64,000 bases of DNA, taken from an uncultured Gemmatimonadota bacterium. GTDB taxonomy: Bacteria > JAAXHH01. Position numbers and translations under genes: made by a program. The stretch spans positions 3,264,001 through 3,328,000 of the forward strand of contig OX638340.1 of assembly GCA_951812955.1 (NCBI GenBank). Direction: 5' to 3'. The notes under the pieces were generated by a model that ran no database searches, was not told where the DNA came from, and worked only from the letters and a program-made list of their open reading frames with translations. Below, in pieces: positions 19,496-34,984 of this stretch. Positions within the stretch are counted from its first letter, which is position 1. Every line of letters starts with the position of its first letter.

Positions 19496-19540
19496 CCTGT
19501 GATTAAGCGCCAGAAAGTGAACGCGTCCGGACGGCTTCCC

Positions 19541-20716
19541 ATGTCGAACCACGTGATCGAAGCGGCGGCACAGCTCAGGTGGTGGCTGCGGCTTCCCCCG
19601 ACCAACCTCATCGACCGGGGCGACCACGTCCGTTTCCGGTACGCCCTCTACCTGATGATCCACCAGGTCGCCACCGTGCTCTACGGCATAAACGGGCTGC
19701 CCGAAAGTATGTACTATCCCTCGCGGCTCGAGGGTGCACGAAACCGCCTGGACGGGTTGACCCGGGCGCCGGAACACGCGGGCTCAATCCTCTGGACACT
19801 GGCGACCGAACGCGATCCGGAGAAAGCGTGGGCGGCCGCGGCAGGACTGATGCGGGATACCCTGGCATTGCTGGAAGAATCAGCGGATGGGCGTGGTTCA
19901 ATGGGTTGGGAAGTCGAGGAAGGATCATTCAAGCCGGATCAGTCTCGGAATCCCGATGATCTATACGCACTGGCCGCCGAAATCGCTGAGCGGCTTCGCC
20001 TCCTCGAGAAAGCAAGCGCCGTGGCTCTGGGCGGATCCCTGGGGAGGGGTTACGCAGACCGCCAGTCGGATATCGATCTGCTCTTTTTCGGGCCGAGCAT
20101 TCCCCGTGAGGTCGATCGCCGCCGGCTGATCTCGGCCTGGCCGGACATTCAACATGGACCCCTGGTCGAACCGGCCTGCGACAGCGTGGTGCTCGATGGG
20201 GCGATGGTCCATATACGCTACTGGACCAGGCAGACCGTGGAAGACATGCTGGCGGCAATTCCCAGGCCACCGGTACAGCGGATCCTTGCAGAAGAGTTAC
20301 AGAAATGCCACGTCTTGATCGATCCGGACGGAAGGCTTCTCGCGTGGAAAGGCGTTTTGCATCACATTCCATCGGAATTGGTCACGGTTATTTACGAAGA
20401 AGCGCGGGGAAGGCTGCCCGCTTTTCGTAAGCAGTGGCAGAAGGCGCAGGAGTCCGATGACCGGATCCATCTCTACTGCCTGGCCAACCAGGCCGTGAAC
20501 GATTTCCTGATTGCGCTGTATATCCGGAATGGGCGGTTTCTGAGCACGCCCAGATGGATTCACCTTGATACGCACGCGTTCGATGTCGGTCTGCCGGAAC
20601 TGGAATGCAGATTGGCTTCGTTTGTGGACGGGATAGACGACCGGAAAGATACTGCGGCGAGATGGCGCGCGCTTGAGGTTTTGTGGGGGAAGTTGGCGAG
20701 TTTGCCGCCTTCATAG
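19541..20716 (+). CDS. nucleotidyltransferase-domain protein (Pol-beta superfamily), unusual in having ~180 aa N-terminal to the NTase motif
   Basis: GGSLGRGYADRQSDIDLLFFG = GS-x9-DxD nucleotidyltransferase motif; ATG at 19541 preferred over track GTG at 19499. Confidence 0.55.
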   Translation: MSNHVIEAAAQLRWWLRLPPTNLIDRGDHVRFRYALYLMIHQVATVLYGINGLPESMYYPSRLEGARNRLDGLTRAPEHAGSILWTLATERDPEKAWAAAAGLMRDTLALLEESADGRGSMGWEVEEGSFKPDQSRNPDDLYALAAEIAERLRLLEKASAVALGGSLGRGYADRQSDIDLLFFGPSIPREVDRRRLISAWPDIQHGPLVEPACDSVVLDGAMVHIRYWTRQTVEDMLAAIPRPPVQRILAEELQKCHVLIDPDGRLLAWKGVLHHIPSELVTVIYEEARGRLPAFRKQWQKAQESDDRIHLYCLANQAVNDFLIALYIRNGRFLSTPRWIHLDTHAFDVGLPELECRLASFVDGIDDRKDTAARWRALEVLWGKLASLPPS

Positions 20717-21429
20717 GCCTTATGGTCGTCCGTGGTTGAGATTCGAAATGCTCTGCGCACATCTCGGAAATTACATCGTCTACGCGAAGGCTGAGATACG
20801 GCTATCTAAGGCGAGTCTGCTTCTGGAACAAAATAGACTTCGAGATTCAGGTTGAGAAATCGACTAATACCAGTAAGCAAGTTCCATGTAGGTATCCGTT
20901 TGACGTGTTCGGCTCTTGCGTTTGATCCACGCGTATTGTGCATTGCTACAATCATCGATCATCGGATTGCCTCTTATCGGGGCTGGATCGAATCCACGAC
21001 ATCGATCGAAGGAGTGGATTTCATGGGATGGCTCTATGAAGCCAAAAAGAGACGGCACAGGGTAGAAGGACGTGCTGAGGGCCGGAGAGAGTGACCAGGC
21101 CTACAGGGAGTGGATCAACAGGGAACAAGAGGCTGGTATGCTTGGCACACCGAAGCAAAGTCCTCCGCCGTTTCTTGATGATAGAATCTGCGATCAGGCC
21201 AACGGCTCGGATCATTGACACGGCTGGTTTTTCGATAGTCTCGGAAATCCGGGTATTGGCCTTTGGGGGACAGGATGGTTTGGCCAGTCGGATCCCCAGG
21301 ATTATTAGTAACGAATTCGGCAATGAGTCGTTTCTACGTCTGGCTCTGAACTTGCCCTATCCGGCTCAGATGTGACTACCACGTATACTGTCCTCCCCTC
21401 ATGCGAAATCGCTCGACATCGACCCGAAC

Positions 21430-21650
21430 CTCTTCCAGAGCCTTCGCGATTCCAACCTAAAGGATGGGGCGCTATAAGTATGATTTCCGTTCTATTTTGT
21501 CCAGATAGGTTTCGGTCAGCATCGACCCGTTGGTGACGATCGAGGTGGTCATCCCATATCCTTTCACCATTTCAATCAGATCCGCCAACTAGGGACAGAG
21601 CGTTTGTTCGCCACCTGCGAAACTCATTTCTTCGGTCCTTGCGTTCTGCA
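21430..21650 (-). pseudogene. remnant of a radical-SAM enzyme gene (fragment with internal stop)
   Basis: Minus-strand translation ...[44 protein letters not shown]... resembles the GGEPLL...TNG region of radical SAM/SPASM proteins but carries a TAG and lacks the CxxxCxxC N-terminus. Confidence 0.3.
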
Positions 21651-21941
21651 ACGTTGCCATTAGTGGCGGCATTGTTGGCTATAGAATGGACATCTACGTA
21701 GTACGGGGTTACGGCAGTCGAGGGCACGGCTCCGTTCTTCGGTCGGAAGCAAACGAGGAACCATCTAGTCGCTATTAAGGCTGAGGTGGCATTTTCAATG
21801 GCGAGCCGACACGCGGACTGGATGAAACAGGGTCGGCGAGATTATGAATACTACATCCGTGCGGAAGCGAAATGCGCACTGGCGAACGCCGCGCAGGTCA
21901 TCGACTTCTGTGAAGGTATTCTGGCTGGACCGCTCTCGACT

Positions 21942-22257
21942 GATGGAGCGTCTCAATCGAGCGGTCCGAACGCTGGGTGACCGCCACCCCGAAATCGAAT
22001 CGATCTATCTGTCCGGCTCGTTGGCGCGGGGAGACGCTGTACCCGGCAGCGACAGCGACGCGGACCTGCTGATCTTGGTGAGTCATGCCACCGAGCCGTT
22101 TCGGGATCGACCGGTCTGTTACCACACGACGGGTATGGGCGTGGACGTCGACGTGGTGGTTTACACGCGAGAGGAACTGGACGCGCTGCTGGAGACGGAC
22201 AACGAATTCGCACGGCGGGCATTGCGTGAGGGTGTCCGGTTGTTTCCGGTTCGCTGA
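21942..22257 (+). CDS. MNT-type minimal nucleotidyltransferase (antitoxin-like), apparently orphan
   Basis: ...IESIYLSGSLARGDAVPGSDSDADLLILV... = GSxxRG-x6-10-DxD of KNTase/MNT family; no intact HEPN partner found adjacent; start at MERLNRA ATG. Confidence 0.55.
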
Positions 22258-22425
22258 AGCGACCGGATACCGTGGTCTTTCTGGCCATGGTGGCAGTAAA
22301 CGGTTCGATCTTTCGGAGTTTGGGCGTTACGCGCTTTCAATCGAGATGGCCTTCGATTACGTTATAGTCGACAAGCTGTCAGGCGTCCCCAAAGGGATAA
22401 TCGCCCTGGATCTTGGAGGCGTTCG

Positions 22426-22860
22426 ATGATTAAGAATGAAAGGCAGTATTTGATTACGAAGGCTCAGGCTGCACGGTTCGTCCGCACTCTTGAAAGCCTG
22501 GATGGCGATGACGGTGTACATGATGTCATTCATAAAGCGCAACGGGATGCCGTACGAAGCCAGATCTCGGATATGAAAGCAGAGATTTCTGAGTACGAAT
22601 CGTTGAAGGCAGGGAACTCAAACCAGATCAACTTAAAACAGTCAACGAATTACCGGTGCTGCTAATCAAAGCGAGGATCGCTCAAGGCTTAAGCCAGAAA
22701 GATCTGACCGATCGGCACGGCTTAAAGGAACAACAAATACAGCGATATGAAGCCACGGACTATGTCTCCGCCGACTACCGCGACTCAGGGAGGTCGTCGG
22801 GGCCTTGGGAATCGAAGGAAAAACAATGAATTAGAATGAAACAGTCTCCGCATCTTAGTG
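22426..22860 (+). pseudogene. XRE-family HTH antitoxin (HigA-like) pseudogene with two frameshifts
   Basis: Frame 1: MIKNERQYLITKAQAARFVRTLESL...; frame 3 continues ...NELPVLLIKARIAQGLSQKDLTDRHGLKEQQIQRYEATDYVSA...(classic XRE helix-turn-helix); a third frame gives ...PRLREVVGALGIEGK. Shifts near 22640 and 22775. Confidence 0.55.
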
Positions 22861-22982
22861 GCCACATCAATCAATTTAACATGTTTCAACCGGTATACAT
22901 TCACACAAATATGCAAGCCATGTATCCAATGAAACAGTAGAGCCGTGGCTACCACAGCGAGCAGCAACTAGATTTGTTTAGG

Positions 22983-25900
22983 TTAGGCCATTAGATGCTC
23001 CAAAAGATTGTGGCTAACAGACCTGACTGTTCCCGTAGAAAGATCTAAAGCAACCTCCGCCATACCCACACCTTCGGATTGGGCGTTTATCTCTGAGCGC
23101 ATCCAAGCTCTTAGCCGTTCCGGCTGTTCATAGGTATCCAAAAGAAAGGAAGGGTAATTCAATTTTTCGAAGCTTGTGGGTTGGGTTTCTAGTCGGTTGA
23201 AAGCAAGCTCACGTACTTTCTTGTCACGTGTGAAACGGGCAGCTACGGCGCGCAAGCACGAAGGCAAAAACTCCCAGATATCACCACGGAGGTTCGACAT
23301 TCTCGTCTCAACTCCGATTACGAATTCATTCGGAGATGCGATTGCGGCTAACAATTGTATCTGAGCCGGAAGCAGGAGTTTAGGTTTTTCAGCTTGAACA
23401 CGGGTTCTCAGTTCTTTCCATGCTTGCGAGTCTGGCCAGCCTGCACTAAGGGCGATAACAAGCGCATTCGAATTGTCATCTAGAGTTACACAAGACTTTA
23501 GAACTTCGTAAGTTTTGGTATCGTTGGAAAATTGTTCAGCGAGAATTTCTGCAGCTACTATGCCAGGAGCAGTTTCGATCCAACTGCCTACATGGTGATA
23601 TTGAACTAAGGGGAGGCAAAGCTCGCGTAGTTGTTTCGTATTTCGCAATTGACTAGAATAAAGTTGTAGCATTGGTGCAGTCGTCATACTCTGACTAGCT
23701 TGTTCAACAATCTCGTCTGCTTTATCAGAATCTGTGGCGTGGGCAGCCATTTCCGTTAGGAATTCATCCGACATCCATCCTATTTGTTCCCAAATACTAT
23801 CACCGAACGCCTGAGTTATCCTATTCCAATGGCTGACCAAGTGTTCGGCTAATCGTAGGTTAGTGCTATGGACTACGCCAAAGCCTCGGTCATTTGTCTC
23901 ACATTCTGACCACACAGTTTTTACGATGTCAAGTCGGTCAAGCTCAAGAAGTACGGAGAAGGCCGCTTGGCGCCGGTCCCCGTAATCCGGTCCTATAACA
24001 AGCAACCCCTTTGTCAGTTTTTCAAGAAGTTCAGATGAGAGTTCATCTCGTTGAATGACTGATGCTGCGAAGCCGATTGCAGCTGCCGTTTTAACATTTA
24101 CATCTATATCTTCATCATAATCTGACAGAAGTTTATATGCGAAATCATCGTCTGGACCTAAGCGTGCAAGTCGATCGACGACAGTCAAACGGAGTTGTAC
24201 GGGGAGTGGACTACTTAGTTTGAGCAGTTCACAACGTATCTCATCACAATTTAGGTAGGCATTTGCAACGGTATTCAAGTCCCCTGCACGATTCCGTAAC
24301 TGATGAAAAGACAAGTCACGTACCTTGGGATGATTAGGAAAGTGTTTAATCAAGTCACTTACGCCCCAGTATGGTACGCCTGATGGTACCTCCCCCGAGT
24401 ATTTCTCTATAGCTGCTGGCACTACTTCCTCGTCATGCTCCTTTACTCCAAGATTGACCAATCCTATCAAAGCACCTCGGGCTGTTGAACCCGATTCATT
24501 GTTAAGAATCTCTAGTAAACGCCGCCGACATAGTACTTTATCGAGAAGAATCTCTGGCAGAAGATGTGCGGCCTTTATCGCAACATCACTATCAGCAAGA
24601 TTTAACAAAGCAGTAGCAACTTCTTTATCCTCCATACCCCATCCTAGTAACAACCACCGAGCTTGGTCCTTTGATATAACACCAGTATCCTCGTCCGGTT
24701 TAAGCAAAATACCCTTTGCCTGTTCTGATCGAGAGATGAGGCAAAGTTCGAAATCCCAAAATAACCTTCCGTTTTCTTTTTTAATTTTCCGCTCTAGCCA
24801 GTCGTCAACGGCTAGTCCTAATATCTGATGACCAGCGAATGCCTCAACGAGCGGTCCCCAGTTACCGCCAAGGCCAATTAAATGGCTAGGATAGTCTTCA
24901 GTCCGAAACAAACCTGCAATGGCCTCAGCAACCTCATCATCTTGCGGAAAACCTTCCAGCAGAATGATTCCGACGGCTCCAGAATCAACTATTACTTTAT
25001 CACCATTTCGTTCGATACTCCGTATCGCACTGTTTTTGACTCCAATGTCACCTGGCCAACCCTTGAGAAGAGCCCGAATTCGGTCGTCTTTCCAGCACCA
25101 TGATGCAAAGTGAAAATCTCGTGCAAGTTCTACTAATGTCTCGTAGTCATCCACATCCTGTTCTTTGCGTTTCACTCGATGAATTAGTGCGACACTTTGT
25201 AATGCAACATCGGCAGATGACCGCGCGTGCTTCAAGATTTCAGGAAGCCGATGATTAGTTTCCCAACCAAGGCAAAGCGCATGCAAGGAGCAGGCAAGCA
25301 GTCGCGGTTCAGAAGGAATCAATAGTAAGTCAAACAGCCATTCTGCAACAGAAGGATCACCTCCGTAAGCTCTTGCGAGTGATTCTGCTGCTATTCGTTG
25401 ATTCCAAGCTTCTTCATCAATAAAGCCACGCATTAATATCGCTTGGCCCTCGCTAGAAATACCCCATTTCGAGGCGGACTCATACATTCCGTGACGATAT
25501 TGATGTCGCAAGGGAAACCAGCGTTGAATACGGGACTCTACATGTGATCGCAGTATCTCGGATTCAAGTCCATCAAGTGCAAACTCAATAAGTCGTTCTC
25601 GAGTACCCGTGCGAACTCCGGTTTCTACAATCTCAAACGTCTCTTCCGCCAGTTTTCTGGCGACACTTGGCGAACAATGGAGATCACCAAAGGCTACTTC
25701 GGCAAGAAAGCTTTGCCGAGATAACTCCATTTCAGCCGCTAGTGGCATACTTTCGATAATCGCGACGAATTCATCCACCTCACCATACCGCGAGTTAAGA
25801 TGGCACAGGCACAAAAACACATCGTGCCACTGAGGATTCTTAAATCGTTTCTTCAATGCTTCCTTTTGCTGTTCAAATGGGAGATTAGATAGGTGTTTTG

Positions 25901-27872
25901 CAGCGAGGAATTCTTGTAAAGAGCGATGTAGAAAGCCGATCTCTATTGGTGATTTCTCGATGAGAACCCCAACTGCCTCGGTACCAATAGTGAGTAATTC
26001 TTCTGCTATACTATGTGCACCTTCCGGTTTTTTATGTAGGTGAGTTGAACAAAATCCCTGAAGCACATCCTTAGCAATGACTCTATCTAGAGCATCGCTC
26101 CCCGCTGAATCGTGGGTTTCCCAAGCCAACCTAGCCAATGCCCGTTCACGTGTTTCCTGTTGCAAATGTGAGTTGGTCCCGCGTGCGTGAACTGACTTTT
26201 CACGTCGCTTGGGCTGTTCGTCTAGCAGCAGACGTGCTAGTTCCTCGTATGCTTTGAATCTGCTGCGGGGAAGGCTCACTTTCTGAATGGCAAGAGCAAT
26301 TAGGCCATTAAGTAGTAAAGGCACCTTTGCCAGGCGGGATATCCGTAAATCACGGTGAAGGTCTTGTATGAATTGGGTGGCTTCGGATTTCGCCCTTTTG
26401 TGTCGCATGGCGATAGAGTCGCTATCTTCGCCAGGTACAGCAAGTGTGTAGGACCGATGCATGAACCATCGTTCAGCCAAGATTCCTTGTTGTTCATCTG
26501 TCAACCCAGAAAGCTGGGCTACACGCCACCTACTGCTTAGTCCACCGATCCGCGTATAACCTAGAGGACGACTGCTGACGATTGCTGGTACATTCCGTTC
26601 TCCCACGAATTGTTCGAGCAAACCAAGCGCCGTCCGAGCATCCGTGCCGTTACTCCACTCATCAAGGCCATCTACAAATAGCATTAATCTCGAATCTTCC
26701 AAAGCCTGCTGAACCAATGTAATTAGAGCTGTCTCAGCGGAAACTTTTTGAAGCCAAGCAGTGAGAACATTTGCTAACGAACACCCTGTTTCAGATTCGC
26801 TGACAAGTCGCGTCCACATGGCAAACGGAACCCAAACAGGTAAATATTGTCCCCAACGAAGAGCACTTGCCTCATAGCGCGGATCGGTACTAAGTAGATC
26901 AAGTAATACACAACGAAGCAAGGTACTCTTGCCGATACCTGGGTCTCCAAGTACAACCGACTGATCGGAGTCTGCAAGCCAGTCAATCGCTGAGCGGCGA
27001 ACTAGCGAGGGTCGAGGCAAAACTTGCGGTCTGCGGGATTGAGTAGAGTCTTCGTTTCCATCGGTGCGGAGTCGTCCTTTATTTTGATCTTCTATCGATT
27101 GATTAGTTGTTTCAATGTGGGCAGCTTGTTGTTCTTCCAGAATATCGGGAGGCACAAATCGATCGGCTAAACTGAGGGGCTGAAAGTCAGGTTTTATGGA
27201 ACCTGTTACGGACGGGATACCGGGATCGGAAATCTCGAAATGGTGAGTATAGCAACGCCGAAGAAGCTGTCGCAGTTGTACGACCTGACCAGGTTTTAAT
27301 CGGCGACTCGACAGTTTGGCAGCAGCTTCTTCGCCACAGAATTCCTGCACCCACTCGCGTCCAAAGAAGTCGTCTACTAAATCTGGATGGTTTTTTAGAT
27401 GTTCAGAAATCTGCGTGACACCAAGTGGTAGGAATTGGATGTTGCGTTCACGGAGGCGATCGCCTTGTGATTCTAATTCTATTGCAAGCTTTTTTTCTTC
27501 GGTCTTCACCGAAACTGCTAGTACAAACTTATCGGTTTTAGGTGCCCATGAGCCTTTTAAAAAACCAGTAACCGCAATGTCGATGAGATCCGAGCTGAAT
27601 TCCTTGTATCTTTTGCACTGCCAAACAGTATATCTGGATGATTCCAATGTGCGTACGTAGATATCTATACCTTCTTGATCCTGACCTGGAATCCCATACT
27701 CTTGACATCTTTCCACTTTTCCACCGCGCTGTGCGAGGCGAGCACAAAGTCTTTGAAAGAAGTTCCACGGTAAGAGGTTTAGTGGGAGTTCCTGTAATCT
27801 AGTTCTAATGGGATGAGAGACAAATGATTCAGATGGTACCCACACACTTGTGTTTTTTTTTGATTCTTCCAT
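22983..27872 (-). CDS. NLR-like antiviral STAND protein: N-terminal Mrr-type restriction-endonuclease-like domain + NACHT NTPase + ~1000-aa C-terminal helical (HEAT/ARM-like) repeat region
   Basis: N-term ...GQDQEGIDIYVRT...YTVWQCKRYK... (Mrr_cat-like D...QxK); Walker A VVLGDPGIGKSTLL; NACHT-type Walker B LMLFVDGLDEW followed by AIVSSRP; remainder alpha-helical repeats. Real ATG is second codon of track ORF (track starts at TTG). ~45% GC. Confidence 0.85.
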   Translation of the reverse strand: MEESKKNTSVWVPSESFVSHPIRTRLQELPLNLLPWNFFQRLCARLAQRGGKVERCQEYGIPGQDQEGIDIYVRTLESSRYTVWQCKRYKEFSSDLIDIAVTGFLKGSWAPKTDKFVLAVSVKTEEKKLAIELESQGDRLRERNIQFLPLGVTQISEHLKNHPDLVDDFFGREWVQEFCGEEAAAKLSSRRLKPGQVVQLRQLLRRCYTHHFEISDPGIPSVTGSIKPDFQPLSLADRFVPPDILEEQQAAHIETTNQSIEDQNKGRLRTDGNEDSTQSRRPQVLPRPSLVRRSAIDWLADSDQSVVLGDPGIGKSTLLRCVLLDLLSTDPRYEASALRWGQYLPVWVPFAMWTRLVSESETGCSLANVLTAWLQKVSAETALITLVQQALEDSRLMLFVDGLDEWSNGTDARTALGLLEQFVGERNVPAIVSSRPLGYTRIGGLSSRWRVAQLSGLTDEQQGILAERWFMHRSYTLAVPGEDSDSIAMRHKRAKSEATQFIQDLHRDLRISRLAKVPLLLNGLIALAIQKVSLPRSRFKAYEELARLLLDEQPKRREKSVHARGTNSHLQQETRERALARLAWETHDSAGSDALDRVIAKDVLQGFCSTHLHKKPEGAHSIAEELLTIGTEAVGVLIEKSPIEIGFLHRSLQEFLAAKHLSNLPFEQQKEALKKRFKNPQWHDVFLCLCHLNSRYGEVDEFVAIIESMPLAAEMELSRQSFLAEVAFGDLHCSPSVARKLAEETFEIVETGVRTGTRERLIEFALDGLESEILRSHVESRIQRWFPLRHQYRHGMYESASKWGISSEGQAILMRGFIDEEAWNQRIAAESLARAYGGDPSVAEWLFDLLLIPSEPRLLACSLHALCLGWETNHRLPEILKHARSSADVALQSVALIHRVKRKEQDVDDYETLVELARDFHFASWCWKDDRIRALLKGWPGDIGVKNSAIRSIERNGDKVIVDSGAVGIILLEGFPQDDEVAEAIAGLFRTEDYPSHLIGLGGNWGPLVEAFAGHQILGLAVDDWLERKIKKENGRLFWDFELCLISRSEQAKGILLKPDEDTGVISKDQARWLLLGWGMEDKEVATALLNLADSDVAIKAAHLLPEILLDKVLCRRRLLEILNNESGSTARGALIGLVNLGVKEHDEEVVPAAIEKYSGEVPSGVPYWGVSDLIKHFPNHPKVRDLSFHQLRNRAGDLNTVANAYLNCDEIRCELLKLSSPLPVQLRLTVVDRLARLGPDDDFAYKLLSDYDEDIDVNVKTAAAIGFAASVIQRDELSSELLEKLTKGLLVIGPDYGDRRQAAFSVLLELDRLDIVKTVWSECETNDRGFGVVHSTNLRLAEHLVSHWNRITQAFGDSIWEQIGWMSDEFLTEMAAHATDSDKADEIVEQASQSMTTAPMLQLYSSQLRNTKQLRELCLPLVQYHHVGSWIETAPGIVAAEILAEQFSNDTKTYEVLKSCVTLDDNSNALVIALSAGWPDSQAWKELRTRVQAEKPKLLLPAQIQLLAAIASPNEFVIGVETRMSNLRGDIWEFLPSCLRAVAARFTRDKKVRELAFNRLETQPTSFEKLNYPSFLLDTYEQPERLRAWMRSEINAQSEGVGMAEVALDLSTGTVRSVSHNLLEHLMA

Positions 27873-28376
27873 CAATGTAAATCCTTAAACCGATCGTCGA
27901 TGATGTTACCTCGATTTCGTGGACGATTTACCATTTGGGATTCAGGCTGTTTGCTTGAAGCTCCTTTCGTAGGTTGATGGTGAGAGATATCCGGGGGAAG
28001 AGTGCTTTCTCCAAGTATTGTAGAAGTCCTCGATGTATTCGAACAGTGCGAGTCTAGCCTCGGTCCCTGATTCGCTAGACCGACCGTATGTTGCAAGTGG
28101 AGAAACCTGAGAAAGTTATAGGTAGGGTTGCAAATACTATAATAAACATAGGCAATCACTACGTGGATTCGCCATCTGCACACAACCAAGGCACGCGTTC
28201 GAACGGGTTTTGGTTTCCAGTGATTAAACGATTCTTATATCGTCCTCGATATTCGAATTTCCGCAACAATATCAATTCGATATACCACTGACTTAGGCGT
28301 AAAGAATCCAATAGTGCATCCATCGAAATGTGACCATGCCTACGTTCAGGGTGAACGATATCATTACGAATCTTTG

Positions 28377-29444
28377 TTATCGCGGTCGGACCGTCCGTCC
28401 ATCCCTTCTTTTAGCAATCGCTTCCAAGTGTTTGCAGTGTGACGGAATTTTTGCTTCGATTTCTAATTCTTCGAGTGTCTTTTTTAACGATTTACCGAAA
28501 GAATACACCGTTTCCTGATTGATAATGTAGGACAGAGATTCTAGGGCAGCCTGAGTAAGAACGATTCCCACGTGAATGGCGCTGCCAGCACTATTCACAT
28601 ACCAATCTATAGCCCGACGAATGGCATCTTTCCATTCTTCCTTGGTATACAATTCCCAGAACCCACGAAAAGATCCGGAAAGACTGCCTCCCCCGTCATG
28701 TTTCGCGAGCCACGTGTGCCTGCTTTCTTGCCAGTGAGTTACGTACTTCGTTCCCCATAGTATGGACTGCTCCCCTCCACTTACATCAATTCCTTTTACA
28801 GATGTAAGACCACACGCCGTGCCACGAGCGAATGAGAAAAAGGTCCCTAATCCGTCTATTAAGGGTAATACGTCACCCACGGTAAACACTTTGTTGTTCA
28901 GAGAGTAAATTGCTCCAGTGTGGGTTATGGCATATCCTCCACTTTGTTTTAGGATCTTCTGATTCTCAAAAAAATTGCGATTTTCTTTAATCTCAATCCG
29001 CCAATGATCGACTTCTAGGATTGCGAACCCAAGTCGTCGATATACTCCATCTATTTCTATGTGTTTATCTTGTGCACCATAAAACGTTATGAAATTGAGT
29101 ATACCGAATCGCACAGATTTAAGTCGGACATCGGACCGAGCTACTGTACAAGGACTCTGAACAGGGCCTAAGGAACCTTTGAATCCAATTACTGAATCCT
29201 TATTGAGACTACATGACTTCAGCTTTACTCGAATCCTTCCGCCGCTCTTCAAGGAAATAAAAAAAGGTTCATACATAAATCTCTGTCGCATAAACAATGG
29301 ATATTCATCGGAATCGATAGAAAACTGTAATCTGGGCGACAGTCGAAGAACCGCGCGAACCTTACAAGGCGTGGATAGACATTGGTCTTGTATGTGAGTG
29401 ATACTTGTATCGTCAAGAACAACTGGTTCATTCGGTTTGCACAT
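28377..29444 (-). CDS. hypothetical protein, 355 aa, no recognisable motif; low-GC island gene between the RM gene and the NLR gene
   Basis: Long clean ORF, ~43% GC, codon usage like neighbours, 44 bp downstream of the RM gene stop on the same strand. Confidence 0.5.
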   Translation of the reverse strand: MCKPNEPVVLDDTSITHIQDQCLSTPCKVRAVLRLSPRLQFSIDSDEYPLFMRQRFMYEPFFISLKSGGRIRVKLKSCSLNKDSVIGFKGSLGPVQSPCTVARSDVRLKSVRFGILNFITFYGAQDKHIEIDGVYRRLGFAILEVDHWRIEIKENRNFFENQKILKQSGGYAITHTGAIYSLNNKVFTVGDVLPLIDGLGTFFSFARGTACGLTSVKGIDVSGGEQSILWGTKYVTHWQESRHTWLAKHDGGGSLSGSFRGFWELYTKEEWKDAIRRAIDWYVNSAGSAIHVGIVLTQAALESLSYIINQETVYSFGKSLKKTLEELEIEAKIPSHCKHLEAIAKRRDGRTVRPR

Positions 29445-29487
29445 AACCTACCGATTATCCTTCAATCACCGTGAAAAGATTCTTAAA

Positions 29488-32400
29488 CTACTCCATCGCC
29501 ATAATGATTCTCGCAATCCGCCTAGCGGTTTCCGTAAAGTACTTAATCTCTTGGGGATTGAGCGCACGCCCGATCACATTGAACTCGCGGTAGGATAGCC
29601 ATTTCTTAAGTACCTGATAGCCGCCAAGCTTGTAGTTCCAGATTTTGGTGGGTACGTTATGCCAGAAGGCGCGGTCGTTCAAATACACGTCCACAGTAGT
29701 TGCACCTAGTGCGGAAATCGCCGTACCTAGGACGGCGCGTTCGTCAGCCGTGTATTTGCGTTCGACGATGCGGCCTTTGCCCGGCATTACCGTGTCGCCC
29801 CGTCCGTAGTGACCCCACCTCGCAGTCACTGCGAAATCATCATCGGTCATATTGCTACCGTGGCTAGTTGTAGGCACGGCAAGCGAAGCGATCTCAGGTG
29901 GTATCGCACCCTGAGTAACGCCCGGTACCGGGGTGTCGGGATCAAATAGACAGGCTAGTTCACGACCCCGGTCGGCCGATTCAGCGAATAACTCAGCGGC
30001 ATTTTTGGTATCCCCATTGGGCCAGCCCGGTAGTGGTATACGCGGCCAGTCCATTGCAAGCGCCCCGGCATTAGCTTCACGATATGTCGGATTGTGGAGG
30101 ATGGTAAGGATGTTGTGGAATAAGTCCTCAGGACTCGCTCGTATACGATGGAGATAGCGTTTGCCAGCCTCAGATAAGTTTGGTAGGTAATGTAATACGT
30201 TGTCACCAGCCCCAAGGACGTCGTTGTTAAGATAGATGGGGAACCATATCGCAGTACGTTCGATTAAATGCATAGCACCAAAGTGTCGGGTAACAATGGT
30301 CTGTGCCTCCGTTACGTCCTTACGAAGATGCTGAGCTGCACACAGCCACAGGTTTTCCTCGAACACCTGTCGCTTGTAGTCGGCACGCTTGTCGTTAAGG
30401 AGTTTAGTCTCTGCTTCCCAGTAAAGCCATCGGATATCGAAGGGGCGGTACGCGAAGCGAATGAACCCGCCTTCGTTCGGTCCGCCGCGTGCGAGTAGTG
30501 TTTCGCGCACAGAGTGAGCGTCAAAATGCCTCGCGGTTTTCATGATAATAGGATATCGCTGGGCAATCTCGTTGTGGCTCAAATTCACGTCGAAATAATC
30601 GGAGACGCGGGCCATTAGTCGATCAAGGTCGATATCGACAAGAAACGAGTCCCGGTTGGTCTTTGCTCCAGGAAATGAGATCGGATAAATATCGGGTAAC
30701 GTAGGCCAGTTGAACCAGCCCTCACTCACCGCCGTACGCACGAACGGCAGGCCAAGCGGCAAAGATGGCTCGATGCGGTCATAAAGTACGTTTGGTTCCG
30801 CATGCGCCGTCGCCATCAGTTCCTTGCGCTTTGTACGTCCCCACAGATGGCGAAATCCGATCTCCACTGCGGGGGTATGATTGTACTTACGTACCAGAGT
30901 TGCAATGGCCGTACCCACCTGAATGCCAACCGGATTGTCCGGCGTCGAAAAGATACTTGGGTCTGGCGAGCCATCGGGAGCGACCTTTCCGGTCTTATAT
31001 TTGTCGCCATTTAAGCAGTCGATCCGAATCGAGTCGAAAACCTTGAGGAAGCGCTCCCTCATACCAGCGAACGACAGCCCGTCGAGCCAGGAATAATTGG
31101 AAATGAAACAGATTACCCCCTGACCGGTTCGCCCAGCAATCCGTCTTTCAGCCATACGGAAGAATCGGATGTATAGATCGATCAGTCCCTTGCTTTTTTC
31201 CATCCGTACTTTGCTTGTCTTACGATAGGCTTCGAAGAGTTCGCGTTCTTCATCAATCGTTACACCGGCAAAGGCATTATAGGGTGGATTACCCAAGATC
31301 ACCAAAACCGGAGTCTCCTGCTTCACTCTCTCGGCCCGGTCACGCTCTTCCTCCAATTCAGGGAACGGCAGCACATTCTTAGTTCGCGGCTCCCATCCAG
31401 TCAGAGCGTTTGTTAGGAAGACTTGGGCTCGTTCCATCCCGTCATCGGAAAACGTCGCATCAAGTGCCTGCATGGTCAACCCGATCTGAAGATGCGATAC
31501 GACAAAAGGCGCGGGCATGATCTCGAAGCCAAACACCCGTTCTAATGCCGCCTGCTTTACCTGCGAACCGACAAGCGCACCGACTCCTTTGTTTTCAAGA
31601 TTGGAAGCAATATTGCGTAACACTTCTGCCAGATAGGTTCCGGTACCGCAGCATGGGTCGAGCACATATACGTTTTCCGCAGCTAGTCCATCTGGAATCC
31701 CCAGATCGTCTTTGAGCGCTTTGTCCACTCGTGTAACCATATAGCGCACTACTTCGATTGGTGTGTACCATACGCCTAGTTGCTTACGCAACCCAGGGTC
31801 GAATGCCTGTAGAAAGGGCTCGTAGAAATAGGTTACCGCTTCGCCTTCATTGAATCGGGTGAAGAAGGTAGTGCGGTCCACACGGTTAAGAGCAGCGGAT
31901 GTCCAATCCAACACTTCCACTAGGCCTAGAGGCTCAAGGCGAGCAGGCTGTGAGAGTTGCTGGAACAGAGATTGCATGATAGGAGCACGTAAATGCCACA
32001 CAGCTTCACGCCAGTTGAACCGCCCTTGTGGCGGTGGCACCTGTCGTGTCCACAAAACCTAGGCGGAAAAAACCCCATAGAATAGTGTCTGCACTAGCGT
32101 TGAATTGAAAAACTGTGTGCCTTTTTCCCCCTCGAATCGGACACCAAGCGCGGCTTCTATCGCAGCCCGCACCGATTCTAGAGACGGCGAATCGTCGACG
32201 GCTTCGACACGAGAGAGCCCATCCCGAGCATAAGATGCTAACAACCACGCTAGGTCCTTAGGCTCGGTAAGCATAGTGCGATGTGACAAAGCTCGGGAAA
32301 GATACTCACCCAAGCCCACGCTGACCTCTCGGGCAAAGGTTCGCGGAGTCGCTAACTTTAGATCAAATTCCTCAGCAGTCTCGGCTACCTTAAAGCACTC

Positions 32401-32829
32401 CAATACCGTCTGCTTCCCGACATCGTCTTCTCCCACCAAAACGAATTCACAAGTGTCGGTCACCAGCACCTGACGATAGCGTGCCCAATACCGGGCGACC
32501 TGTTCGCCGACCGCTGTCGCTGCAGCATCACCAGAGAGTGACTTCACCTCCACAACGCCACGTTCCGGCGCTTGCTCTTCGCGAGGTCTGCCTCTCCTAA
32601 CCTGGTTTTCAGTAAAAAGCCCGAAGTCAGGATGGCCCGCACCTAGATCAGCAAGCTCTCCAACGCAATGCACCTTAGGATTGAGCATTCCACCGATGGC
32701 GTTCAGCAGATTTGCGATTGGTCCATAGCTAGAACGTTCTCCGGTCGCAGCCCCGGAAGCCTTTATTCTCTGCAAATCGGCGAAGTAGAGCTCAACTGCT
32801 GCAGTTAGTTTATTGTTCAATACTGTCAT
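29488..32829 (-). pseudogene. MmeI-like single-polypeptide Type IIG/IIL restriction-modification enzyme (PD-ExK nuclease + gamma-class N6-adenine MTase + TRD), interrupted by one in-frame TAG at 32059-32061
   Basis: N-part (32829-32062): ...LGAGHPDFGLF...GVVEVKSLS... PD-x(n)-ExK. C-part (from 32055): ...VLDPCCGTGTYL (SAM motif I), ...ILGNPPYNA (motif IV), C-terminal TRD. Both parts are in the same frame: TTT TCC GCC TAG GTT TTG TGG. Downstream part could still be translated from TTG/GTG as MTase+TRD. Confidence 0.75.
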
Positions 32830-33224
32830 GATTACAATTATAAGGTTGATGAATGCAGGCGCTATAGTGTGTTAGAGGAGTTATGCGAAAAGCGAGGAGT
32901 GGTGTCTAATGTAACAGCGACCTTTAAATGCGGATGTTTGATGCTCGTAAGAGTCAGGGAATTCGGGTTCTTTTTCTTCAATTTTCAATGTCATCAATGC
33001 GAAACTTCACCCTGACGTATTTGCTGTCTTCGTTTTGTTCAAGCTCTGGTTCAGCGCCGTTGAGCTCGCTAATCGCTTTGCGCATCAACGGCCACACTCT
33101 TCCTCTTTTCCATATATCCTAACTGCCATCTAATTTGCCATCAGTTTATTTTAACGTGCATGTATTCAGATAAAGTACTGTATTAAGTTGAGGACATCCC
33201 AATTGATCTCCTGTTGTTCCGTCC

Positions 33225-33491
33225 TCAGCGATATATCTTATCCCGTCTGCCAACTCGAATTACCAAAACGCGCAACGCTCCGGTCTGTATGTCGCAGATC
33301 ACACGAAAGTCACCGACCCGATATCGCCACAATTTGCCCATCGGTCCGGCCAGTGCCCTTCCCGTGTTTCGTGGATCACTGGAGTCAGCAACGCGTTCTT
33401 CAATGTAATTGACGATGCGCAGTGTCGTCTGCTTGTCGAGCTTGCGAAGATCGTTAAGGGCGGTTTCAGTGTACTCAATCGTCCAGGGCAA
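33225..33491 (-). CDS. RelE/ParE family type II toxin
   Basis: MPWTIEYTETALNDLRKLDKQTTLRIVNYIEE...GKLWRYRVGDFRVICDI... typical RelE/ParE fold sequence; overlaps antitoxin gene by 17 nt. Confidence 0.75.
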   Translation of the reverse strand: MPWTIEYTETALNDLRKLDKQTTLRIVNYIEERVADSSDPRNTGRALAGPMGKLWRYRVGDFRVICDIQTGALRVLVIRVGRRDKIYR

Positions 33492-33702
33492 GGGACTTTC
33501 TCACTTCGGAAGCAGTGTAGACTTTTTCCGTCCCTCTTCTGAGGCGATTCAGTACGTCCGACGCAAAGTAGTAGTCTTCCAGGTCTTCGAGGCCACGCTC
33601 AATGATCTCACGTAAGTGGAAGTCCTTGCTGAGGCTCGTCTTGGATACCAATAACTCAAGCCGCTTTTCATCTTCGGGAGTCAGTTGTATCGAAGTCGCC
33701 AT
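33475..33702 (-). CDS. RHH-type antitoxin (RelB/ParD-like)
   Basis: MATSIQLTPEDEKRLELLVSKTSLSKDFHLREIIERGLEDLEDYYFASDVLNRL...; ribbon-helix-helix N-terminus, immediately upstream of toxin. Confidence 0.65.
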   Translation of the reverse strand: MATSIQLTPEDEKRLELLVSKTSLSKDFHLREIIERGLEDLEDYYFASDVLNRLRRGTEKVYTASEVRKSLALDD

Positions 33703-33949
33703 GTCGGGTAATCCTTTGTCGATTAAACTACAACTGCGAAGAATCATCTAAGTTTCAACGTACTTCATAGAGGTACTTACGTCAATATCCTAATCCTTTT
33801 CGCGCGGACTGAGCCTGTCTTCATCTCAGTATAGTCACAATACTGTGGCCTAAGAAACCCCCCGCCACCCTGCATCCGCAATACCAACCCTTCCCCGCTC
33901 TGCCGCAGGCTATATTATCAGAAGGCGGCTCAAAATCCGGACGTCTGAA

Positions 33950-34984
33950 TCACGCCTCCTCGATAAACTTCTCCACGTCCACGCAGGCCCCGTCCCGTCT
34001 TGCCGATTCCCACCCGGCCAGAATAGGCGCAAGCGACTTGAGCCCATCGTGATAATCGCTCTGAAGCAGGCCGGGATTGTTCGACCTGACCGCTTCGACG
34101 AAGGTCCGGTCCTGGGCGAACCAGGGGTCAAAGGGGTCGGCCTCGTAGACGACCTCGTCATTCAGCTCGATACGCTCGTAGCCGAAGACCGCGAGTCTCC
34201 CGCCGTCGAAGTAGATTTTGAAGTAGGGCTCTTCGCCCGGCCCGGTCGGATCGGATTCGATGAAGGTCAGCGTCGCCGTGGCACCGGCAGACAACTGGTA
34301 GTGAAAAGACGAGGAGAGCGGCGTATGATATTCGTCCGGATGGTACAGGTACGCCTGGGAGCTGTGTACGTCCTGCCCGGTCATGAACCGGGTGTAGTCC
34401 GTGGCGTGCACGCCCCAGTCGAAGAACCGGACGCCGCCTTTCTCCACCTGGTGCGACCACTCGGTCCGGTCGGAGGCGGCCGGCTTGACGTTATGTGAGA
34501 TCTGCTGAAAGCGGACGTGCACCACGCGCTTGTCCTCTAGCAGCCGCCGGGCCTCTTGGAAGATGGGTCGATACCGTTCTCGGAAGCCTACTGTGCTGAT
34601 GACGCCGCCCTTCCGCACGGCCGCGTCGATCCGCTTCGCCAGGGCCATCTCCAGTGCCTGGGGCTTCTCGCTGAAGAGTTGTATGCCTCGTTCGGCTGCC
34701 GCGATTTCCACGTCGGTGCGGGCGAAGGCCGGTACGATAGACCACAATGCGTCGGGCTGTTCGGTTTCGAGCATTTCGTGGGCGTCCGAATATGTACGGG
34801 CGACCCCGAACTGCGCAGCCGCTTCACTGAGCGCGGTTTCGTTGATGTCACACAGCGCCGTGATTTCGGCACCGTCGATCCGGCTCAGGTTGGGCAGGTG
34901 CGTGGCCTGGGCAAACCTGCCGGTACCGTAAACGGCAACGCGGACGGGTCGATCAGTCATGGATGTTCTCCTAATCTCCTTCAC
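33950..34984 (-). CDS. Gfo/Idh/MocA family NAD(P)-dependent oxidoreductase
   Basis: ...VRVAVYGTGRFAQATHLPNL... Rossmann N-terminus and C-terminal GFO/IDH/MocA domain; high GC (core genome resumes). Confidence 0.8.
   Translation of the reverse strand: MKEIRRTSMTDRPVRVAVYGTGRFAQATHLPNLSRIDGAEITALCDINETALSEAAAQFGVARTYSDAHEMLETEQPDALWSIVPAFARTDVEIAAAERGIQLFSEKPQALEMALAKRIDAAVRKGGVISTVGFRERYRPIFQEARRLLEDKRVVHVRFQQISHNVKPAASDRTEWSHQVEKGGVRFFDWGVHATDYTRFMTGQDVHSSQAYLYHPDEYHTPLSSSFHYQLSAGATATLTFIESDPTGPGEEPYFKIYFDGGRLAVFGYERIELNDEVVYEADPFDPWFAQDRTFVEAVRSNNPGLLQSDYHDGLKSLAPILAGWESARRDGACVDVEKFIEEA

Follow-up and report, generated by a model that had tools for sequence, protein, structure and literature searches.

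The innate immune receptors of animals and plants have prokaryotic counterparts in the bacterial NLR-like proteins, and any new sensor family among these may be directed at a different viral feature. Among the described systems of comparable layout is bNACHT25 from Escherichia coli ECOR11 (WP_001702659.1), a single-gene antiphage protein in which an Mrr-like restriction endonuclease (REase) is followed by a NACHT NTPase of the signal transduction ATPases with numerous domains (STAND) class (Kibby et al. 2023; Conte et al. 2025). This protein of ~820 aa, annotated as REase+nSTAND4+NCH1 and assigned to NACHT clade 6, ends in a short NCH1 C-terminal domain and senses infection through DnaJ; its hyperactive mutant in the histidine of the winged-helix domain (WHD) is toxic via the nuclease, and the substitution D48A abolishes toxicity (Kibby et al.). 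Proteins joining REase/Mrr_cat to NACHT are also listed in NACHT clade 2 (WP_044834066.1, WP_157567192.1 and PKN68616.1; Kibby et al. Table S1), where these entries carry no bNACHT test number. For Avs proteins, binding of phage proteins and assembly into oligomers with nuclease activity have been described (Lee et al. 2026); in Avs7 (SeAvs7) the effector is a Cap4 nuclease, at least 20 alternative effectors occur in the family, and a nuclease-active oligomer is formed on ligand binding (Lee et al., Nature 2026). The present analysis concerns a gene for a 1629-aa NLR-like protein, found in a stretch of 64,000 nucleotides (hereafter the window, whose numbering is used throughout) from an uncultured Gemmatimonadota bacterium (contig OX638340.1, positions 3,264,001 to 3,328,000). 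We consider, with a probability of roughly 75%, that its product is an antiviral STAND/NLR-like receptor that acts alone, in the manner of bNACHT and Avs proteins.

The gene is contained in a single open reading frame (ORF) that spans 22983..27875 on the minus strand; translation from the ATG at 27872 yields 1629 aa, with an in-frame TTG at 27875, one codon 5' of this ATG, and the product was 100% identical to a 1629-aa database protein (P0001). The effector-NTPase-sensor order proposed in the initial annotation was recovered, all three modules being present in that order in one gene, and every string quoted there was located in the protein (GQDQEGIDIY at residues 63-72, VWQCKRYK at 83-90, GDPGIGKST at 309-317, LMLFVDGLDEW at 395-405 and SSRP at 433-436). 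The gene is indeed low in GC, but the contrast described (45% in a ~65% genome), though roughly right, was overstated: the measured values were 46.8% for the gene and 60.6% for the window without its low-GC block at ~20000-34000.

The central module was matched by PF05729 (NACHT) at aa 304-472, above the gathering score (E 4.6e-10; 40 bits vs. a cut-off of 26.7; profile positions 2-166 of 167). Here and below, residues are called invariant on the basis of 52 aligned full-length homologues, the most distant at 31% identity. The Walker A residues G312, G314 and K315, the Walker B residues D401 and G402 with the additional acidic pair D404-E405, the sensor-1 arginine R435 (S-R-P motif, R435-P436) and the winged-helix histidine H649 were all invariant, in agreement with the NACHT NTPase claimed from the motifs. 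The protein is predicted to carry a NACHT NTPase of the STAND class, with all NTPase motifs intact. In the PDB profile search, the family profile also gave a weak match of the WHD region to NLRC4 residues ~400-465; judging from its motif, H649 would be the functional equivalent of the ADP-contacting NLRC4 H443.

The N-terminal domain is predicted to adopt, at the family level, an Mrr-type restriction-endonuclease fold. Mrr_cat was matched by 34 of 36 homologous N-termini at E <= 0.01 (best 8.3e-9) and Mrr_cat_2 by 24 of the 36, and a precomputed PF04471 annotation was present on 11 of the homologues listed. An AlphaFold2 model of aa 1-225 (pLDDT 84) displayed an alpha-beta-beta-beta-alpha-beta core, and D70, Q85 and K87 were invariant. 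Profile matches were hence found for both enzymatic modules, above threshold in the window protein for NACHT and at the level of the family for Mrr_cat. Position 40, in helix alpha1, is Q in the window protein and in 18 of the 21 close relatives (>40% identity), and E in all 31 distant relatives. Since 18 of 21 close relatives share it, Q40 appears to be a clade trait rather than a private lesion.

The long helical HEAT-like region, estimated earlier at ~1000 aa, was modelled confidently as an all-alpha HEAT-type solenoid of ~940 aa (AlphaFold2 model of residues 690-1629, pLDDT 89.8, pTM 0.90), with ~55 helices and a terminal beta-hairpin. In the PDB profile search, the family profile matched designed HEAT (alphaRep) proteins at positions 817-906 (E 2.8e-9), and HEAT_2 was precomputed on many homologues. 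Foldseek searches of the model against the PDB returned only generic HEAT solenoids, namely transportin, Kap95, CAND1/2, FANCI/D2 and SF3B1 (E 4e-5 to 1e-3, TM ~0.2), and PDB sequence and profile searches found no solved relative besides HEAT repeats and the weak NLRC4 WHD match.

More than 120 full-length homologues of 1600-1720 aa were found to align end to end. In a scan of one genome per species, relatives were detected in 225 species, from Latescibacterota, Acidobacteriota, Planctomycetota, Verrucomicrobiota, Myxococcota, Actinomycetota, Cyanobacteria and many Proteobacteria (among them Bradyrhizobium, Pseudomonas fluorescens, Dickeya oryzae and Aeromonas bestiarum), as well as in a Paceibacterota metagenome-assembled genome (MAG) and in the archaea ANME-1 and Methanothrix. 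A sensor-only search of 1.84 billion cluster representatives gave at least 658 clusters (50% identity), 314 of them at E <= 1e-30. Among 140 sensor-bearing representatives that were fetched, 83 were full length, and all 83 were colinear with the Mrr-NACHT-sensor profile; the other 57 comprised 56 N-truncated fragments and one 354-aa fragment with ~50 unmatched N-terminal residues, classed as "other". No alternative N-terminus was found in the 83 full-length and 56 truncated sequences, and the Mrr-NACHT-sensor architecture is hence fixed across the family. Identity among distant members was 0.52 for Mrr, 0.54 for the nucleotide-binding domain (NBD), 0.42 for the helical and winged-helix part, 0.35-0.39 for the sensor and 0.23 for the linker. 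This pattern, with effector and NBD high and the sensor lower, seems typical of immune receptors. No homologue was found in E. coli by megablast, nor any encoded by a phage, and none of the large neighbouring ORFs, checked as tandem paralogues, matched the family HMM.

The architecture class itself is already known from clade 2 of Kibby et al. and from bNACHT25. Compared by description only, the window protein retains residues equivalent to the His (H649) and Asp (D70) of bNACHT25; unlike that protein of ~820 aa, it extends to twice the length and includes a HEAT solenoid of 940 aa, and no tool grouped the two. The clade 2 entries, compared by coordinates only, follow a like domain order at similar positions, with REase/Mrr_cat at ~17-133 and NACHT from ~214/289 to 737, vs. 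~30-150 and ~292-700 in the window protein; family matches showed no overlap with the accessions and genera of Table S1. In Avs4 (EcAvs4, PDB 8dgf), by contrast, the NTPase is not of NACHT type and the phage portal is sensed; the family gave no sequence-profile match to any Avs chain in the PDB, and the Avs4 sensor was not among the Foldseek matches. Avs7 is similar in its proportions (effector ~1-225, NTPase, sensor ~960 aa) and in its broad bacterial and archaeal spread with extensive horizontal gene transfer. Unlike Avs7, with its swapped effectors, the family of the window protein has its effector fixed as Mrr in 83 of 83 representatives, and the spacing between Walker A and Walker B is 86 residues (K315 to D401) vs. 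66 in SeAvs7 (K292 to D358). The Avs7 sensor is common to Dsr1, and no Dsr1 model was among the PADLOC matches of 30 members, in a library not confirmed to hold one. Identity with Avs7 was rejected on the effector, the spacing and the lack of a Dsr1-type match, in an indirect comparison made without the SeAvs7 sequence or structure.

Other named systems were rejected on their scores. NCBIfam NF058535, which covers the NACHT-type antiphage protein known as Avs10, Erebus EruA, Hypnos or bNACHT64, was the only NCBIfam family with any match, and this reached 31.5 bits against a cut-off of 1000, in the NBD only (profile positions 63-218 of 1318); the enterobacterial homologues did not match it. Weak matches to mad8 were obtained in 18 of 30 relatives (best 5e-5), with none for the window protein, and weak mad2 matches were obtained as well. 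The methylation-associated defence system (MADS), defined by mandatory mad6, mad7 and mad8 in an operon of ~8 genes, was rejected on these marginal scores and because the island ORFs scanned included no match to mad6 or mad7. PADLOC gave only weak partial P-loop or REase matches on 30 family members. On five proteobacterial homologues (including those of Enterobacter, Dickeya and Aeromonas), PADLOC and NCBIfam gave no match that would name the family, and four of the five had none at all; the P. fluorescens homologue had two weak P-loop matches only (UgpC, 20.4 bits, and EruA, 19 bits vs. a cut-off of 1000). The window protein is Avs/bNACHT-like by architecture and is not a member of a named, tested family. 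Current defence-annotation models do not detect the Mrr-NACHT-HEAT family, and censuses of defence systems therefore undercount it. STAND seed no. 24 of Lee et al. 2026 (EAB1657539.1, Salmonella enterica) has an NTPase 36% identical over 228 aa to that of the window protein (E 7e-46), a level also seen among full-length family members. In this comparison, made on the NTPase segment only, the seed displayed the family-specific motifs WL..SDQ, GKST.LRC, LP....FA.W and LFVDGLDEW.N. Because of this identity and these motifs, the family is probably within the census of 589 clades (Lee et al. 2026); no paper citing the accession EAB1657539.1 was found.

In order to characterize the genomic context of the family, the neighbourhoods of 80 loci were compared. 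Because no neighbour family recurs in more than four of them, the NLR-like gene appears to be a single-gene system without a conserved partner. The nearest flanking ORFs included strong matches to Avs2, PD-Lambda-4, Hma, a pAgo PIWI protein, Lit, the DISARM methylase (DrmMI), Type IIG and TIR, together with five phage-type integrases, resolvases and IS110/IS66/rve transposases; this enrichment in defence and mobile functions was read from the neighbour lists, without a genome-wide background rate. Plasmids of Deinococcus, Pantoea and Enterobacter hormaechei also carry full-length homologues; in E. hormaechei the plasmid is a conjugative one of type IncHI2A, and the homologue is flanked there by CBASS and TIR genes and insertion sequence (IS) elements. 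Of 66 homologous loci compared, 49 had a gene lower in GC than its distal flanks (mean difference over the loci -3.5 points; Wilcoxon p = 2e-5). Rather than the housekeeping contexts free of transfer signals that were also considered, the homologues thus showed variable defence and mobile neighbours and low gene GC. The distribution of the Mrr-NACHT-HEAT family, in defence islands, is patchy and horizontally transferred.

The defence role of the window protein is proposed by analogy, and its mechanism is modelled on Avs1-4, Avs7 and bNACHT25. At rest, the C-terminal HEAT-type solenoid would lock the NACHT module in a closed state and keep the Mrr-type nuclease domain sequestered. Upon infection, a conserved viral protein or an infection-perturbed host factor would be bound by the solenoid, and the NACHT module would then open, bind ATP and oligomerise. 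The oligomer would cluster the N-terminal nuclease domains into an active assembly cutting dsDNA indiscriminately, and phage DNA would be destroyed and/or the infected cell would die (abortive infection). The presence of the family in archaea, in Candidate Phyla Radiation (CPR) bacteria and in diverse other bacteria argues for a very widely conserved ligand. Homologues in tractable hosts (the E. hormaechei IncHI2A plasmid, Dickeya, Aeromonas and P. fluorescens) are open to trigger screens of the published type.

Several results weigh against a receptor of this kind. PADLOC 2.0 gave 0 matches for the window protein, Avs and NLR models included, so that the Avs and bNACHT models named in the initial annotation left it unmatched; no NCBIfam 20 model recognised the family in the window protein, 30 relatives or the five proteobacterial homologues, and no experimental report on this Mrr-NACHT-HEAT family was found in the literature. 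No Avs or NLR sensor was among the Foldseek matches of the sensor model in the PDB, and the comparison of the C-terminal region with Avs sensors, suggested in the initial annotation, showed no resemblance; since the sensor matches no solved Avs/NLR sensor, direct recognition of a phage protein would be pure analogy. The promoter scan revealed no convincing promoter for the NACHT gene, and the island around it is decaying. As for the Mrr-type effector, the fold and the family-level homology held, but the score of the window protein itself fell below the cut-off for PF04471 (Mrr_cat; E 0.003, 18.2 bits vs. 21), as it did for PF13156 (Mrr_cat_2; 16.8 bits vs. 22). With Q40, the acidic residues left would be D70 (plus E67), and catalytic competence is assumed.

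Part of this evidence could also be read as a STAND receptor whose nuclease fold is catalytically dead and serves as a DNA-binding or oligomerisation module, or as a window copy that is a non-functional remnant. The replacement of the alpha1 glutamate by Q at position 40 in the window protein and its close clade, a third motif residue that is Q and neither E nor D, the sub-threshold Mrr_cat score, the two upstream pseudogenes and the IS remnant abutting the NACHT start codon agree with such a reading. However, D...QxK is the normal Mrr-type motif, its residues D70, Q85 and K87 are invariant, Q40 is stable in the clade, and the effector is among the two best-conserved modules, while the 1629-codon frame is intact and colinear with its homologues throughout; we regard both variants as very unlikely. 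A STAND protein with a role outside immunity, for instance a signalling ATPase or a housekeeping regulator, is an exceedingly improbable reading. Many STAND clades are not defence-related (Lee et al.), and the gene occupies the same chromosomal site in a Gemmatimonadota relative, yet its effector is a nuclease, its GC is anomalous, the family is spread patchily over phyla and archaea with plasmid-borne homologues, and its neighbourhood is not conserved and contains defence and mobile-element genes.

The relationship of the NACHT gene to its upstream neighbour was analyzed in a close subclade of 14 distinct loci, in which the NACHT protein is at least 59% identical to that of the window. In six of the 14 (the window, L089, L001, L003, L011 and L092), from at least two phyla, the NACHT gene is immediately preceded on its own strand by a gene for a Type IIG restriction-modification (RM) enzyme; in the Latescibacterota locus L011 the two genes overlap by an ATGA (9998-10001) that holds the stop of the Type IIG gene and the start of the NACHT gene. 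Two loci carry other genes upstream (one a XamI/Eco57I-type RM pair, one an N6_N4 methylase), six have no RM or methyltransferase gene there, and the association was absent from ~66 distant loci. Traces of the Type IIG gene suggested by tblastx in L008-L010 were rejected, as tblastn did not confirm them. The slot between the two genes is filled by a YopA-like gene in L089 and the window and by DUF4238 plus a 73-aa ORF in L001, and is empty in L011 and L092.

On gene order alone, a functional coupling of Type IIG and NACHT is possible. The upstream Type IIG enzyme and the NACHT protein could form a two-gene system, with the NACHT protein as second component, either as a back-up that fires when restriction is inhibited or as a nuclease with a methylase-dependent self/non-self decision. 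The direct adjacency in six of 14 loci, the ATGA overlap, the similar divergence of both genes between loci and the other RM or methyltransferase genes upstream in two further close loci point in this direction. We nevertheless consider such a system quite unlikely: the association is missing in the ~66 distant and in six close loci, the Type IIG enzyme is complete with a nuclease motif of its own, a TAG codon interrupts the window copy next to an intact NACHT gene, unrelated cargo separates both genes in three lineages, and adjacency is expected, RM systems being the commonest tenants of defence islands. The linkage is read here as co-transfer within a mobile defence cassette. A joint reading is unlikely. 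In it, the uniform Mrr-NACHT-HEAT family would be a distinct Avs-type receptor with a trigger outside those described; its sensor, whose colinearity extends from Gemmatimonadota over cyanobacteria and CPR bacteria to methanogenic/ANME archaea, might respond to a viral hallmark protein, or to a host factor, shared by the viruses of bacteria and archaea, and in the subclade of the window the protein may also be an operonic partner of Type IIG. The architecture itself is unsurprising to a specialist; more noteworthy are how large and uniform the family is, that annotation models lack it, that enterobacterial homologues are at hand for trigger screens, and that an operon-like pairing with Type IIG recurs.

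Table 1. Coordinates in the window of the NACHT gene, its predicted modules and candidate functional residues, and other features of the region
Feature	Position	Strand	Remarks
NLR-like protein CDS	22983..27872	-	complete, 1629 aa; stop codon at 22983-22985
Mrr-type PD-(D/E)xK nuclease core (predicted)	27423..27785	-	aa 30-150; topology alpha-beta-beta-beta-alpha-beta-alpha-beta
Catalytic candidate D70	27663-27665	-	invariant
Catalytic candidate Q85-x-K87	27612-27620	-	invariant
Conserved helical subdomain after nuclease core	27198..27422	-	aa 151-225; motif PDLVDDFFGREWVxxFCGEEAA; mean identity 0.52 among distant members
Variable linker	27000..27197	-	aa 226-291; length 61-79 aa; separates effector from NTPase
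NACHT nucleotide-binding domain	26463..26999	-	aa 292-470; Pfam match and invariant motifs
Walker A GDPGIGKS	26925-26948	-	within NACHT domain
Walker B LMLFVDGLDEW	26658-26690	-	within NACHT domain
Helical and winged-helix part of NACHT module	25773..26462	-	aa 471-700; contains GFLHRSLQEFLAA
Winged-helix His H649	25926-25928	-	invariant; in GFLHRSLQEFLAA
C-terminal sensor (predicted)	22986..25772	-	aa 701-1629; HEAT-type alpha-solenoid, ~55 helices, small beta-hairpin at end
Terminator-like hairpin	22942..22958	-	~25 nt past the NACHT-gene stop; consensus match only; site count in region equals shuffle expectation
C-terminal stub of rve-type (IS3-like) transposase	27942-28046	-	LFEYIEDFYNTWRKHSSPGYLSPSTYERSFKQTA*; ~70 nt upstream of NACHT start; Pfam rve_2 E 6.9e-5, 23.4 bits > 22
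YopA-like gene	28159..29444	-	between Type IIG and NACHT genes; frameshifted (net -1) near codon 345
Type IIG RM gene	29488..32829	-	upstream of NACHT gene; PD..EVK nuclease, N6-methyltransferase, Type_ISP_C
ParE toxin gene and putative antitoxin gene	33228-33747	-	edge of low-GC island; ParE PF05016 E 3e-14
MNT-like nucleotidyltransferase-fold gene	21844-22257	+	137 aa; NTP_transf_2 and PADLOC PDC-S09 matches; inside window-specific 2.3-kb insertion 20702-22982
DUF4037-type nucleotidyltransferase-fold gene	19499-20716	+	405 aa; conserved flank of island
tRNA-like gene (ARAGORN)	12895-12968	-	undetermined identity; four-base anticodon cacg

In the window itself, the genes upstream of the NACHT gene (Table 1) are degraded. 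The frame of the Type IIG gene is broken by a TAG at 32059-32061 (...FYGVFSA*VLW vs. ...FYGVFSAWVLW in the orthologue, TGG to TAG); the intact orthologue in L003 has 1120 aa and a Trp at the amber position, and the window copy is either a pseudogene or affected by an assembly error. Because the PD...EVK nuclease motif is held in the N-terminal 256 aa, the remaining part of 855 aa would be a nuclease-less methylase with its target recognition domain. A 355-codon ORF without a family match turned out to be the frameshifted YopA-like gene; its repaired product of 425 aa was 68% identical end to end to its intact counterpart in the closest relative (L089), a 428-aa YopA_M/YopA_C protein encoded at the corresponding position. 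This gene carries a HEPN-like RNDIVH motif, and the ORF had weak matches to ApeA domains (ApeA_NTD1, E 0.067; HEPN_Apea, E 0.047). It is island cargo, separate from the NACHT protein. With the Type IIG and YopA-like genes both taken as pseudogenes, no large gene of this decaying island other than the NACHT gene appears to be intact, and for the window itself the picture is that of an ordinary, degrading defence island. The promoter and terminator scan of the region gave no more sites than shuffled sequence.

The flanking synteny common to the window and the Gemmatimonadota MAG GCA_009840045.1 comprised, in this order in the MAG, GroES, Ldh_2, GFO_IDH_MocA, an antitoxin, the island and a DUF4037 nucleotidyltransferase. 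Between the window and its Gemmatimonadota relative, flanking proteins were ~75% identical and the NACHT proteins 59%. The two same-site NACHT genes (22983-27872 in the window and 10001-14893 in L003) are both of ~46% GC, with flanks of ~61%. Low GC together with 59% identity at a shared site would mean either that amelioration is lacking or that alleles were replaced repeatedly at a hotspot.

Minor observations were made at the borders of the island and in other loci. A 79-aa ORF without a family match (22426-22665, plus strand) is convergent with the NACHT gene and corresponds in position to a 64%-identical ORF of the Latescibacterota locus L011 (14911-15096); because of this counterpart, the cassette common to several phyla may reach past the NACHT stop codon. 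At the other edge, the ParE-family toxin gene overlaps the upstream gene for a 90-aa putative antitoxin (weak DUF6290 match); in the Gemmatimonadota relative L003 the antitoxin is conserved and the ParE toxin is not. The tRNA-like call falls in a low-GC patch at 12000-14000, the second low-GC block of the window (45-49% GC). In two Poribacteria-type loci (L090 and L091), the NACHT gene and a MazE/PIN pair are inserted inside a conserved MoxR-DUF58-BatA (Bat/aerotolerance-type) cluster, and this insertion carries one extra gene, GmrSD in L090 and Schlafen-AlbA in L091.

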